In this document: positions 3,914-6,242 of the stretch, in pieces
Layout of the letters: each line of letters opens with the position of its first letter
Numbering within the stretch: the first letter of the stretch is position 1
Virus record (IMG/VR): IMGVR_UViG_3300016702_000415
Length of the DNA: 10,726 nt
Origin: a virus
Direction: 5' to 3' (one strand)
The notes under the pieces: model-generated
Seen by the model: only the letters and a program-made list of their open reading frames with translations
Told to the model about the DNA's origin: nothing
Database searches by the model: none
Position numbers and translations under genes: made by a program

Positions 3914-4210
3914 ATGCGAAATCCTCAAAAGGGTAACAGAGTCGAAATCATGACCGGCAAGCACCAAGGCCAGATAGGAACTGTCATTGGCCTGGAAGCG
4001 AATGGAAGGGCGCTTGTTCAACTTCCAGGACTGCCGTATGAACGCTCTTATGCAAAAGAGCACTTAGAATTCAGAGGTCGTGGCGAACAGCAATTGTCCA
4101 CGGGTGAGTCGAGACGAAAGCGGATGCAAGCAATGGTAGCGCAAGGTAAGATGTGTCCTTCGTATCCTCACTCATGCAGCGGCGAATGCGGGATTAAACA
4201 AGATGACTAG
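3914..4210 (+). CDS. Hypothetical 98-aa protein with a KOW-like N-terminus and a C-terminal CSGECGI Cys motif
   Basis: The tiled ORF 3743-4210 starts inside tRNAs. The first ATG after the tRNA is at 3914. VEIMTGKHQGQIGTVIGLE resembles a KOW motif. The C-terminal MCPSYPHSCSGECGI matches the motif in the 225-614 protein. Confidence 0.45.
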   Translation: MRNPQKGNRVEIMTGKHQGQIGTVIGLEANGRALVQLPGLPYERSYAKEHLEFRGRGEQQLSTGESRRKRMQAMVAQGKMCPSYPHSCSGECGIKQDD

Positions 4211-4553
4211 GAAAGAAATGGTTCGCACACTTCTCAGGTTGCGTGACCCGGCGAATGAACAGGCAGTACTTGATGAAGTGTATGCTGAATTTCAGAGTGA
4301 ATATTACCCTGGTCGCCGCCAGTTGAACCGTTGCGGCCATTACAACTGCGAGTATCACGGGCTGTGCGCTGTGGTTGAATTGACGAACATTCTCAAGATG
4401 GAATTGAAATATTTGGAAGATCAGGACGACGACAATGTTTTGGGTAGTGCAGGAAAATATCAAAGACGAAGCGACATACGACCATTTCATCCAGGCACTC
4501 TATGCGTTGAACATAGAGCACACACTGGTGAAGGTAGTACCGTTCTCGCATGA
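4203..4553 (+). CDS. Hypothetical Cys/His-rich protein (CGHYNCEYHGLC). Its 3-prime end overlaps the next gene by about 119 nt, so the true extent is uncertain.
   Basis: The first roughly 78 aa look protein-like. The tail past 4435 looks like an out-of-frame read of the ATP-grasp gene. Confidence 0.3.
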   Translation: MTRKEMVRTLLRLRDPANEQAVLDEVYAEFQSEYYPGRRQLNRCGHYNCEYHGLCAVVELTNILKMELKYLEDQDDDNVLGSAGKYQRRSDIRPFHPGTLCVEHRAHTGEGSTVLA

Positions 4554-5202
4554 TGTTATTCCTGATGTGAATCCCACAGGCCGTGTGATGGTATGGGGTT
4601 CGACTACATTGGATCTTGTTGCCAAGAACAAGGGTTGGAAACCTGGGACATTTTTGAACGAGAATTTCGATCAGCGTATCTGGAGAACGAAGTATCCGAC
4701 GTTGAACGATGACGCTGAGATCCATGAGTTTGGTTCCATTCCGGCATTCGAGGGAACGAGATTTATCCGGCCCGTGCATGACATGAAAGTGTTCGCCGGG
4801 ATGGTGATCCACAACGTTGAATTGGAGCAGTGGAAGGAAACCATTCAGCGATATTCGGATGGCTACATTACGTTGCGCCCGGAGACGCCTGTGAGCATTT
4901 CCAGCGTCAAGGACATTGAGATGGAGTGGCGCTTCTTTGTGGTGTCTGGCAAGGTCGTGGCTGGCTCCAGGTACCGGCAGTGGGGATTGTCGGACCATCG
5001 GCGGATTTATGCAGCATCGGAGCCGTGGAAGTTTGCACAGGAAATGGTAGATCGCTGGCAACCAAATGAAGCGTTCGTAATTGACTTGGCGAAGGAACAC
5101 AATGATCCTTCATTCAAGGTGATCGAAGTGAATTGTATCAACTCAGCCGGGTTCTACGAATGTGACATGAAGGCCGTGATCGAGGCAATTGAGAGGTTAT
5201 GA
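4435..5202 (+). CDS. ATP-grasp fold protein (phage-type, DUF4343/RimK-related-like), 255 aa
   Basis: The N-terminus MFWVVQEN... and the motif EWRFFVVSGKVVAGSRY resemble ATP-grasp strand motifs. The family assignment is from memory, not from a search. The stop overlaps the next start as ATGA. Confidence 0.55.
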   Translation: MFWVVQENIKDEATYDHFIQALYALNIEHTLVKVVPFSHDVIPDVNPTGRVMVWGSTTLDLVAKNKGWKPGTFLNENFDQRIWRTKYPTLNDDAEIHEFGSIPAFEGTRFIRPVHDMKVFAGMVIHNVELEQWKETIQRYSDGYITLRPETPVSISSVKDIEMEWRFFVVSGKVVAGSRYRQWGLSDHRRIYAASEPWKFAQEMVDRWQPNEAFVIDLAKEHNDPSFKVIEVNCINSAGFYECDMKAVIEAIERL

Positions 5203-5663
5203 TTGCTCGTATAATAGGTGTGGATGGAACAGTGGCACCAAAGAAGAAAGCGATTCATTACGACGAACCGGAGCCATGCAACAGCTTCCATCCGTACACA
5301 AGCAATCCGCAGCTATGTAAGTGTGGCAAGCCTTACACCGAGCACAAAGCCTTCATGGAAGTTTTGATCGAAAAAGAGAGGAAGCGAAAAGAGGAAGAAG
5401 AATACCAACAGAAGCGTGCGAAGCTAATGGAACTTTGTACGACAGAGATCGACCCCGAAGCAGAGGACGAAGATATAGTCGATCTTGGAAATGGTTGGAA
5501 GCTACCACGAAAGCAATTTGAAATGCTTCGTGACATGGCGCTGAAGAAGTTGAATGAACCGCCAGCAGCCAGCACAGTAACGCAGTCTTCGTTCTCGACA
5601 AGTTGGGTTGGGCCGTTGCCATACGAAAGAAAATTTGGTGGCGGCGGGATGAAAAAGTGTTGA
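5199..5663 (+). CDS. Hypothetical protein, 154 aa, with Cys/His pairs and a Lys/Glu-rich coiled segment. Translationally coupled to the ATP-grasp gene.
   Basis: An ATGA overlap sits at 5199-5202. Motifs include CNSFHPY...CKCGKPYTEH and EKERKRKEEEEYQQKRAKL. Confidence 0.5.
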   Translation: MIARIIGVDGTVAPKKKAIHYDEPEPCNSFHPYTSNPQLCKCGKPYTEHKAFMEVLIEKERKRKEEEEYQQKRAKLMELCTTEIDPEAEDEDIVDLGNGWKLPRKQFEMLRDMALKKLNEPPAASTVTQSSFSTSWVGPLPYERKFGGGGMKKC

Positions 5664-5664
5664 C

Positions 5665-6033
5665 ATGACTTTGAAAGAGATGGTAAAAGACAAGACAGTC
5701 AAGTTCGTATGTTATCGTGACGGCGAACTGACTTATCGGACAGAAGATGGATTCGAGTTCCCGGTCCCGATCAGCGACACCGGCACTGGAACGTTCCTGG
5801 CCGAAGATAAAGCCATCTTGTTCATGCGTTGGATTCGCAAACAGCTTGATTTGGTGAAGGAGTGGAAGTCGGAAGCGGAGAAAGAAGAAGAGGCATATTG
5901 GACGCCCGACGAGCCAATGAGTCCTGAACTGGCCGCAGCCAACAGGAAATTGTTCAACAGCATTTTAAGAGCGAGAATTCCTGAAGAGGCAGTTCTCCGG
6001 TTCACAGAAGAAGATATGGAGAATTTGCCATGA
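5665..6033 (+). CDS. Hypothetical protein, 122 aa
   Basis: It starts 2 nt after the previous stop. It ends in an ATGA overlap with the next ORF. Confidence 0.5.
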   Translation: MTLKEMVKDKTVKFVCYRDGELTYRTEDGFEFPVPISDTGTGTFLAEDKAILFMRWIRKQLDLVKEWKSEAEKEEEAYWTPDEPMSPELAAANRKLFNSILRARIPEEAVLRFTEEDMENLP

Positions 6034-6242
6034 CATACTATCGACAGTGCGTGCTAGTCAAAAAGGCCACACAGCAGGTTGCCTGGATACCGGAGGAATT
6101 TGCTGTGGTTGGTAAATATGTTAGACTGAAAGAGGACGACGGTTGGAAAGTGACCAACACGAGCGAACATCGTCAGAGCGAAGAGTACGTACAGGCGCAT
6201 GAGCGAGATCACATGGGGCATCGTTCGAGAACGGACATTTAA
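6030..6242 (+). CDS. Hypothetical protein, 70 aa
   Basis: An ATGA overlap sits at 6030-6033. It ends 6 nt before tRNA-Ser. Confidence 0.45.
   Translation: MTYYRQCVLVKKATQQVAWIPEEFAVVGKYVRLKEDDGWKVTNTSEHRQSEEYVQAHERDHMGHRSRTDI

Follow-up and report, generated by a model that had tools for sequence, protein, structure and literature searches.

What role does an ATP-grasp ligase play when its gene lies in the middle of a phage tRNA array, and does it lead a dedicated gene module there or share the site with unrelated neighbours? This question is raised by an ATP-grasp gene (4435-5202) in the IMG/VR virus record IMGVR_UViG_3300016702_000415, a stretch of 10,726 nucleotides (nt) that is referred to below, at its full length, as the window. 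An initial annotation, made from the sequence alone, proposed that this gene heads a translationally coupled operon with three downstream open reading frames (ORFs; starting at 5199, 5665, and 6030), and that the four make up a tight functional module in which the small partners could be substrates or accessory subunits. Every coordinate and junction of these four genes was exact in both the ORF list and the sequence, but the enzyme does not head the chain: a KOW-domain gene and a further small ORF (orfU) precede it and are coupled, giving a block of six ORFs in the order KOW, orfU, ATP-grasp, orfB, orfC, and orfD. The best explanation as a whole, to which we assign a probability of about 0.5, is that an R2K ligase is carried in a phage tRNA array, is separable from its neighbours, and would act on the translation apparatus. 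The locus as described is of modest interest, and the association of the enzyme family with tRNA and RNA-repair genes is the part worth following.

The ATP-grasp enzyme and its family

The product of the gene (255 amino acids [aa]; + strand) matched the Pfam family R2K_3 (PF14243) at 75.8 bits (E = 5.9e-21), far above the cutoff of 26.3, as well as R2K_2 (PF18299; E = 1.7e-16) and, over residues 2-254, phrog_7313 (E = 1.2e-60). No RimK-type profile matched at E ≤ 1 in Pfam or 0.1 in NCBIfam. A sequence search returned no relatives of solved structure, and fold comparison was used instead: the AlphaFold2 model (mean pLDDT 92.9) has the three-part ATP-grasp fold (i.e., pre-ATP-grasp, RAGNYA, and protein-kinase-like domains), and its best Foldseek matches among solved structures were ArgX/LysX, followed by PsnB, Ddl, and RimK (E ~1e-10, TM ~0.6). 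There were 348 such matches at E ≤ 1e-3, and the best 50 of the 348 were all of ATP-grasp fold (mostly ligases, plus synapsin). The early suggestion of an ATP-grasp enzyme of the RimK-related kind was borne out: Pfam, PHROG, AlphaFold2, and Foldseek agree on the ATP-grasp identity, and the enzyme belongs to the RimK-related R2K clade, with its catalytic residues intact.

These residues were assessed using the catalytic feature list of Burroughs et al. 2015 (PMC4431377), with strands assigned from the secondary structure of the model. Seven residues (R112, K118, E164, R166, D217, E231, and N233) are invariant in 38 aligned homologs. Among them, R112 corresponds to the basic residue of RAGNYA strand 2, D217 to the strand-4 Asp of the kinase-like domain, and E231-V-N233 to the terminal ExN, and R166, located in EWRFFVV (strand 161-170), is the Arg typical of ATP-grasp ligases that form amide or peptide bonds. 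K118 is the second conserved basic residue that marks the R2K clade; it lies in a loop free of any GxG motif (VHDMKVFAG, 114-122), and the linker before the RAGNYA domain (91-107; NDDAEIHEFGSIPAFEG) contains neither Lys nor Arg, which fits the R2K trait. The second basic residue, the absence of the ssxGbGl loop motif, and the absence of a linker Lys are thus all seen here. The last-strand motif, IEVNCIN, is ExN and not the ExGD that defines R2K.3 in Burroughs et al. 2015, so that the enzyme is R2K.2 (DUF4343) in their naming; the Pfam label 'R2K_3' for PF14243 conflicts with that scheme, in which DUF4343 is R2K.2 (PMC4431377). From sequence and model, 4435-5202 is predicted to encode a full-length R2K ligase (DUF4343/PF14243) that stands alone, forms amide bonds, and has its catalytic site intact, and to judge from its residues this enzyme is apparently active. 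Its likeness to described R2K.2/DUF4343 proteins (PMC4431377; PF14243) includes the strong profile match, the stand-alone length of ~255 aa, the pair R112 and K118, the lack of a glycine-rich loop and of a linker Lys, the set of Arg, Asp, and ExN, and the sporadic occurrence in bacteria and in tailed phages including jumbo phages (PMC7824862). The enzyme differs only in strand 2, where its basic residue is an Arg and the published description has an absolutely conserved Lys.

The family comprises 5192 clusters at 50% identity, and nearly all of the best 150 of these represent stand-alone proteins 250-290 aa long, with alignments beginning at residue 1. All 120 homologs among the matches listed carry both PF14243 and PF18299, and the family is uniformly acidic, with isoelectric points (pI) of 4.4-6.1 (median 5.1). 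As R2K ligases in jumbo phages have already been noted (PMC7824862), the enzyme belongs to a known but uncharacterised family. Burroughs et al. 2015 predicted that the R2K clade modifies proteins and proposed a general role in host-protein modification (PMC4431377). The R2K.2/DUF4343 literature searched describes links to GNAT, R2K.3, and ADP-ribosylglycohydrolase genes and does not mention a tRNA-array or RNA-repair context; likewise, no link of the DUF4343 family to tRNA arrays was found in the literature searched, which excluded the 2016 RNA-repair survey of Burroughs and Aravind (PMC5062991).

tRNA linkage and gene neighbourhood

Homologs were sampled over an identity gradient, and their contigs were read around the ATP-grasp gene. 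A scan of viral contigs with the single ATP-grasp sequence gave no match, and an alignment-based scan yielded 80 viral loci. tRNA genes were present at 56 of the 90 loci collected before redundancy removal. After this step (ATP-grasp <90% identity), 74 phage loci remained, of which 47 had at least one tRNA within 3.5-5 kilobases (kb) and 29 were flanked by tRNAs on both sides. Around the phage ATP-grasp genes, 321 tRNAs were found in 578 kb (0.555 per kb), nearly all of them (311 of 321) on the strand of the enzyme, compared with means of 4.5-22 tRNAs per jumbo phage genome >200 kb, or ~0.1 per kb or less (PMC7824862), a baseline that consists of published genome-wide counts and not of random genes of the same contigs. 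As an example, phage RsoM2USA has 44 tRNAs in 344 kb (PMC8504454), and 10 of its tRNAs lie in the 7.8 kb around the ATP-grasp homolog. The association with tRNAs spans ATP-grasp sequences that are 26-64% identical to the query.

Beside the tRNAs, the recognisable genes within 3.5 kb of the phage ATP-grasp homologs include those for RtcB, PTH2, an RF-1-domain protein, cREC, RlaP, a TilS-like PP-loop protein, and a HisRS-like protein, and further GatB/YqeY, IF3_C, EF-Ts, and ADP-ribosylglycohydrolase. The family is thus linked to tRNA genes and to RNA-ligase, end-healing, and peptidyl-tRNA hydrolase genes, and it is by linkage only that the regions count as islands of RNA-repair or translation-rescue genes. 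The closest homolog among the deposited phage records searched, gp297 of the Tunturiibacter phage Tunturi_5 (PP885688.1; 43% identical over its full length; annotated as 'ribosomal protein S6 glutaminyl transferase'), has a similar setting: in this 309-kb jumbo phage of an acidobacterial host, its gene is surrounded by 11 tRNAs, comes immediately after one for an RtcB tRNA ligase, and is overlapped by a small downstream gene. Unlike in the window, no KOW gene is present, and the neighbours gp298 and gp299 show no similarity to orfB, orfC, or orfD; the downstream genes of RsoM2USA do not resemble these three either.

In cellular genomes, tRNAs accompany the homolog at 25 of 80 loci. At 20 Chryseobacterium loci the ATP-grasp homolog lies among tRNAs, and the one Chryseobacterium locus annotated in full (L222; Chryseobacterium sp. 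8AT, NZ_LR733314.1, 3137408-3145163, reverse strand) consists of a 17-tRNA array followed by an operon for an RNaseH-like protein (PF04308), the R2K ATP-grasp, RNase T, cREC, DinB_2, an RNA-ligase fragment, and MBL; no P-loop polynucleotide kinase was seen in the stretch of this locus that was read. A full Rnl2-type RNA ligase occupies the equivalent position in L216, and this ligase ORF family recurs in 16 loci. The other Chryseobacterium loci have 1-16 tRNAs, and several flanking ORF families recur in 16-21 loci. Outside Bacteroidota, the cellular homologs have no informative partner, the most frequent being a flavin monooxygenase at six related loci, and no recurrent partner was found among 90 neighbours of cellular loci.

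Is the enzyme tied to the small genes around it? The exact ATP-grasp protein occurs on nine metagenome contigs, six of which (L003-L008) are 99.6-99.9% identical to the window, and the source is an uncultured phage, probably a jumbo phage. The order KOW, ATP-grasp, orfB, (orfC), orfD is kept in L009 (83%), L011 (70%), L015 (63%), L014 (62%), L017 (60%), and L231, the last by the order of called genes only and not by comparison of partner sequences. In this set, orfC is missing from L014, and gaps of 300-500 nt separate orfB and orfC in L015 and L017. Conservation of the quartet as first described therefore stands in six related contigs and fails outside their clade: the order is kept only in close relatives with an ATP-grasp at least 60% identical, and the partners are all absent from L013 (67%), L016/L019 (64%), L018 (58%), Tunturi_5, and RsoM2USA. 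Within the close clade, the sequence comparison indicates that KOW, ATP-grasp, and orfB are the conserved coupled core, because the KOW stop abuts the ATP-grasp start and the ATGA overlap between ATP-grasp and orfB recurs.

Beyond this clade, the partners were lacking at 68 of the 74 non-redundant phage loci and at all 80 cellular loci. Among the 80 viral loci from the alignment scan, an orfD-like gene lies directly downstream only in L022, and an orfC-like gene lies nearby in L046/L047 and L096. Neighbour clustering together with a Pfam census of the 142 immediate flanking ORFs at the 74 phage loci revealed no recurrent partner; the commonest neighbours were HNH endonucleases, and KOW appeared only in the close clade. 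Conversely, the small genes occur without the enzyme. L099 and L100 carry KOW-orfB-orfC-orfD with no ATP-grasp between KOW and orfB (orfB is intact in L099 and lacks the N-terminal knuckle in L100, which looks like a deletion), and L103/L104 (identical) and L105 lack both KOW and ATP-grasp but have orfB-orfC-orfD in the slot that runs from tRNA-Leu(taa) to tRNA-Ser(gct). No ATP-grasp was found within 3.5 kb at 23 of 25 viral loci with orfC (17 of the 25 with tRNAs), and among 20 viral loci with orfD (13 with tRNAs) the enzyme was near only in L108, on the contig of L022, and in L113; considering just the further loci (23 for orfC, ~15 for orfD), the enzyme was again mostly lacking over this distance. 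Two contigs (L030/L127 and L031/L123, each a pair of loci) have orfC and ATP-grasp in one region but several kb from each other. Since the cassette exists without the ATP-grasp, and the enzyme exists in hundreds of phages and bacteria without the cassette, the neighbours do not appear to be obligate subunits or substrates, and the ATP-grasp gene is, to judge by gene content, a separable accessory resident of a variable slot and not the head of a fixed module.

Possible targets of the ligase

No promoter-like or terminator-like site was found by consensus matching on the + strand from 3000 to 8020, and the transcription unit of the block is therefore probably the tRNA array itself. In the explanation we favour, the ATP-grasp mRNA would be made within the tRNA precursor transcript, and the enzyme would use ATP to form an acyl-phosphate and ligate an amino acid or short peptide onto its target. 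This target would most likely lie in the translation apparatus, either as a host ribosomal protein or translation factor or as a phage protein such as the basic KOW protein, and the modification might help phage translation to continue when the host attacks tRNAs or ribosomes. On sequence and by analogy, a protein target is favoured over RNA because the family is acidic, the amide-ligase Arg is kept, and the closest solved folds act on proteins or peptides (LysX/ArgX on LysW, PsnB, and RimK). The analogy includes CDC123 (R2K.1), which belongs to the same R2K clade by profile and literature and acts on eIF2-gamma, a tRNA-binding translation factor (PMC4431377); it differs in representing another, eukaryotic family of the clade with large inserts, and it is absent from the best 50 of the 348 structural matches. 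More tentatively, it is possible that the DUF4343/R2K.2 family as a whole is an unrecognised part of tRNA-array-linked systems for RNA repair and translation rescue in large phages and Bacteroidota, where it might mark a translation factor, ribosomal protein, or tRNA with an amino acid or peptide and so protect translation from immunity directed at tRNAs or ribosomes. A functional link would also tie the bacterial and phage relatives of the eIF2-assembly factor CDC123 to translation; without one, the locus would be an ordinary accessory gene in a plastic tRNA island. The four-gene module offers no route to the substrate, because the partners come and go, and the recurring tRNA and RNA-repair context points to the translation apparatus and to hosts with anticodon nucleases. 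Chryseobacterium, where a tRNA array precedes an operon that combines the homolog with RNase T, cREC, and an RNA ligase, would be a tractable cultured system.

Several points weigh against the favoured explanation. Neither a biochemical characterisation nor a substrate of any DUF4343/R2K.2 member was found in the literature searched, for a large family that has Pfam and PHROG entries and has been predicted to modify proteins since 2015. The sole basis for co-transcription with the tRNAs is the absence of consensus promoter or terminator matches, and the density of tRNAs was compared with genome-wide counts. The Chryseobacterium operon represents a single lineage and therefore roughly one evolutionary event, and myxobacterial, cyanobacterial, and Kordia homologs have unrelated neighbours. 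No tRNA was found near 27 of 74 phage loci (~36%) and 55 of 80 cellular loci (69%). In addition, tRNA arrays are plastic and rich in HNH homing endonucleases, the commonest neighbours of the enzyme; the content of the tRNA-Leu(taa) to tRNA-Ser(gct) slot varies among related phages; and small ORFs such as orfC and orfD show the same tRNA association, so that co-location could reflect insertion hot spots. The main rival is accordingly that tRNA arrays, as hot spots of recombination and homing, simply collect accessory genes, and that the ligase modifies an unrelated host protein or makes a small molecule; the general host-protein modification that Burroughs et al. proposed, and nothing more specific, would agree with this (PMC4431377). 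The array also resembles tRNA regions of other large phages, in which tRNAs on the same strand are interspersed with HNH and small ORFs of varying content among relatives, the difference being that an R2K ATP-grasp, a KOW protein, phrog_20427, and phrog_25356 are not described as typical residents in the literature searched. We consider an incidental context possible but rather doubtful, as the other recognisable genes of the islands are overwhelmingly those of tRNA repair, tRNA processing, and translation rescue, the Chryseobacterium homolog lies within an operon and not just nearby, and the association holds over the whole range of ATP-grasp identities given above.

Two further readings concern the substrate, and both appear unlikely to us. 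An RNA-directed enzyme could repair or protect tRNAs as an amidoligase, for instance by attaching an amino acid to an anticodon-loop nucleoside with a carboxyl or amine group and thereby shielding phage or repaired tRNAs from host anticodon nucleases, or could supply a missing end-healing step beside Rnl2 and cREC. Its position inside phage tRNA arrays would fit, as would RtcB, RlaP, and cREC near phage loci and the Chryseobacterium operon, where RNA ligase (full Rnl2 in L216), cREC, RNase T, and MBL follow 17 tRNAs and no P-loop polynucleotide kinase was seen. Against this, an acidic family is unusual for an RNA-binding enzyme, R166 is the Arg of amide-forming ligases, many homologs have no tRNA or RNA-repair context, and no ATP-grasp amidoligase is known to act on a nucleoside in RNA. 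The dedicated module of the initial annotation, in which the small Cys/His and Lys/Glu-rich proteins would be substrates or accessory subunits of the ligase, as S6 is for RimK or LysW for LysX, deserves similarly little weight. Its genes are tightly coupled by ATGA overlaps, but overlaps of start and stop codons are ordinary in phage genomes and so are not, by themselves, beyond chance. Six related contigs keep the order, and four the ATGA overlap of ATP-grasp and orfB, but this conserved order sits within a general synteny of the region in which the flanking HNH genes, orf225, and the gene for a major vault protein (MVP) homolog are also conserved. The best structural matches are to ArgX/LysX (3vpb, 3vpd, and 5k2m), which act on LysW, a small zinc-binding carrier encoded adjacent to them that resembles the flanking proteins here, as the KOW protein and orfB carry Cys/His knuckles. 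Yet identity is only ~13%, no lysine or arginine biosynthesis gene was found within the window, and a conserved acidic C-terminus of the S6 or LysW type was found in none of the KOW protein, orfB, orfC, and orfD, the C-termini of which are variable or not acidic. RimK likewise shares the ATP-grasp fold and the catalytic set (structural match to 4iwx, E = 1.4e-8), and its translation-related substrate offers a model for mechanism, but the window enzyme has an R2K-type nucleotide-binding loop and matches no RimK profile, and no partner has an S6-like Glu-rich C-terminus. Together with cassettes that lack the ATP-grasp, the absence of the partners from most phage loci and all cellular loci, and the loss of orfC from L014, these observations argue against both a tight functional module of four and a role of the partners as substrates or subunits. 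The explanation of a separable ligase acting on a protein of the translation apparatus is therefore preferred.

The coupled block and its surroundings

The window carries 14 tRNA genes, all on the + strand by ARAGORN and 12 of them confirmed by Rfam, which span 1-7411 and are grouped by amino acid (three Pro, seven Leu with five anticodons, and four Ser with four anticodons). At least four HNH-type endonuclease ORFs lie among them (~1268-1771, 2160-2513, 3066-3557, and 6368-6808), and in relatives the tRNA order is kept and the ORFs filling the gaps differ. The six-ORF block, also on the + strand, fills one slot of this array exactly, beginning 7 nt past tRNA-Leu(taa) (3830-3906, with encoded CCA; ARAGORN, Rfam tRNA 40.9 bits) and ending 6 nt short of tRNA-Ser(gct) (6249-6341; found by ARAGORN, but below the Rfam gathering score and so not reported there). 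Just 7 and 6 nt (3907-3913 and 6243-6248) thus separate the coding block from the flanking tRNAs. As a ribosome-binding site would not fit into the 7-nt gap before 3914 without extending into the acceptor stem of the tRNA, the layout suggests that the mRNA is released from the tRNA precursor by tRNA processing and that the first gene is nearly leaderless. Within the block, the KOW stop TAG (4208-4210) overlaps the orfU ATG at 4203 (ATGACTAG), the ATP-grasp stop TGA (5200-5202) overlaps the orfB ATG (5199) as ATGA, a single base (5664) lies between the orfB stop (5661-5663) and the orfC ATG (5665), and orfC and orfD (6030-6242) are again joined by an ATGA overlap. In six near-identical independent assemblies, nearly all variation in the called frames is synonymous (4 of 4 distinct variant sites in ATP-grasp, 4 of 5 in orfB, 1 of 1 in orfC, and 1 of 1 in orfD), which supports the ORFs as coding.

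The first gene of the chain (3914-4210) encodes a basic protein of 98 aa (pI 9.4) with a KOW domain and a C-terminal Cys/His knuckle (CPSYPHxCxGxC). The window protein matched Pfam KOW at E = 2e-4 and its homologs at values as low as 1e-7, and NCBIfam gave only weak L24 and UpxY KOW matches for the window proteins. Its AlphaFold2 model (pLDDT 78) consists of a five-strand barrel and a helix followed by the invariant knuckle, and Foldseek related it to Spt5/NusG and ribosomal KOW domains (E ~2e-3). Of 19 aligned sequences, 17 share the start MRNPQKGN, and the cysteines C81, C88, and C92 do not vary. The 20 homologs, all at least 66% identical, are confined to this phage clade, and a scan of metagenomes with the KOW alignment returned only copies identical to the window. 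The KOW and ATP-grasp genes of relatives meet stop to start as TGAATG, TGATG, or TAATG, or are 4 nt apart. The longest-ORF versions of several genes of the array (3743-4210, 6281-6808, 6829-7101, 1199-1771, and 2028-2513) begin inside tRNA genes, and their N-terminal residues are therefore translated tRNA (e.g., GFESHHGNQ, PAGVQFPHPLPN). Public protein sets hold such mis-calls, as illustrated by P0123, a 155-aa version of the 98-aa KOW protein.

The second ORF, orfU (4203-4553; 116 aa), shares 119 nt with the beginning of the ATP-grasp gene but is read in a different frame (4203 mod 3 = 0; 4435 mod 3 = 1), as first described. Its own part, 4203-4434 (~77 aa), has no stop of its own, and codon usage there favours the orfU frame (+18.2 vs -15.5 and -37.1). 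A search with orfU found only itself and the 98-aa variant P0122 of L005, which has an in-frame 54-nt deletion and retains the CGHYNCEYHGLC motif. A weak homolog (tblastn, E = 1e-9) lies elsewhere in the array of L015; it shares CGHxxCxYHGLC and also runs on into a tRNA gene. L009, L011, L014, L017, and L231 have no orfU, and their KOW and ATP-grasp genes adjoin, which identifies 4211-4434 (224 nt) as an insertion. Over its last 39 codons, orfU reads conserved ATP-grasp sequence in a second frame, and this frame is open even in L009, where orfU is missing. Different Cys-rich ORFs are present at the KOW/ATP-grasp junction in L015 (4627-5075) and L099 (~2790-3050), the former with DnaJ-type CxxCxGxG repeats and overlapping the ATP-grasp start in another frame, and it seems that small zinc-finger-like genes have been inserted at this junction more than once. 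Probably, orfU is a real, lineage-specific small Cys/His gene inserted between KOW and ATP-grasp, with a run-on end.

Of the causes first proposed for the overlap, a sequencing indel or a programmed frameshift fusing both products is very improbable, and the run-on end of a real inserted gene is favoured instead. The overlap is unusually long, and there is a formal X XXY YYZ heptamer (T TTG GGT) at 4438-4444. However, 4203-4553 is identical in the assemblies L003, L004, L006, and L008, and in a fifth from 4410, which argues against a sequencing error and against an indel around 4420-4450, where one had been suspected. Relatives without an upstream ORF can be aligned with the ATP-grasp from its own Met1 onward, in line with the matches from residue 1 noted above for nearly all of the best 150 of 5192 clusters. 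A fusion would need a +1 shift; slipping by -1 at the heptamer leads into the third frame, where 4436-4553 contains five stops. Codon usage in 4435-4553 fits the ATP-grasp frame only.

Downstream of the enzyme, orfB (5199-5663; 154 aa) has an N-terminal knuckle, CxSFxxYTSNPxLCKxCxxPxxEH (CxC in the window), followed by a Lys/Glu-rich helix and an acidic EID segment, and matched nothing in Pfam, PHROG, or NCBIfam. Homologs follow the ATP-grasp in L009, L011, L014, L015, and L017, and in L231 a 121-aa ORF (putative orfB) in the same position overlaps the ATP-grasp end; the ATGA overlap of the window recurs in L011, L017, and L231. Without the ATP-grasp, orfB is found in L099, L103, and L105, and truncated in L100. 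The claim that the downstream ORFs are real, conserved proteins is well founded, since orfC (5665-6033; 122 aa) matched phrog_20427 (E = 8e-29), with a conserved N-terminal domain of 72 aa, and the last gene, orfD (70 aa), matched phrog_25356 (E = 4e-5) and is highly conserved in sequence. Within orfC, ~50 nt (5803-5853) match the DNA of enterobacterial jumbo phages of the GAP32-like kind at 88-91% identity (Cronobacter GAP32, Yersinia fHe-Yen9-04, and Erwinia pEa_SNUABM_47 and _49), and beyond this stretch a 2.35-kb query had no DNA match to deposited phages. In GAP32, the gene matching orfC lies 33 kb from the ATP-grasp homolog. A phosphoribosyltransferase-like ORF (FxxGxFxLxSG...DDDW) was also seen in the same slot, upstream of orfB in L103 (1895-2296) and between orfC and orfD in L105 (3034-3492), and a PRTase_3 match appeared in the wider census.

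Just 3' of the tRNA array, 8097-10628 encodes the 843-aa homolog of the eukaryotic MVP (MVP_shoulder, E = 1.5e-21; Vault_3, E = 1.9e-7), which has the same position in L014, L015, L229, and L230; a scan with this protein returned only two syntenic contigs. Its shoulder domain belongs to the SPFH/Band-7 type, for which a scaffolding role in RNA-repair systems has been proposed. Between the array and this gene, 7425-7982 encodes a dual-specificity/tyrosine phosphatase of 185 aa (PTP-NADK, E = 2e-19; Y_phosphatase2, E = 1e-15), whose copy in L011 is 86% identical and whose N-terminus (MKRLLFALLLCLPVFAQS) resembles a signal peptide; a secreted phosphatase would be unusual for a phage. Finally, a homopolymer at 6972-6975 is GGGG in the window, L003, L005, and L148 and GGGGG in L004, where the extra G therefore fuses two reading frames into a 165-aa ORF, and the homolog in L011 supports the GGGG version of the upstream gene (~6903-7101).

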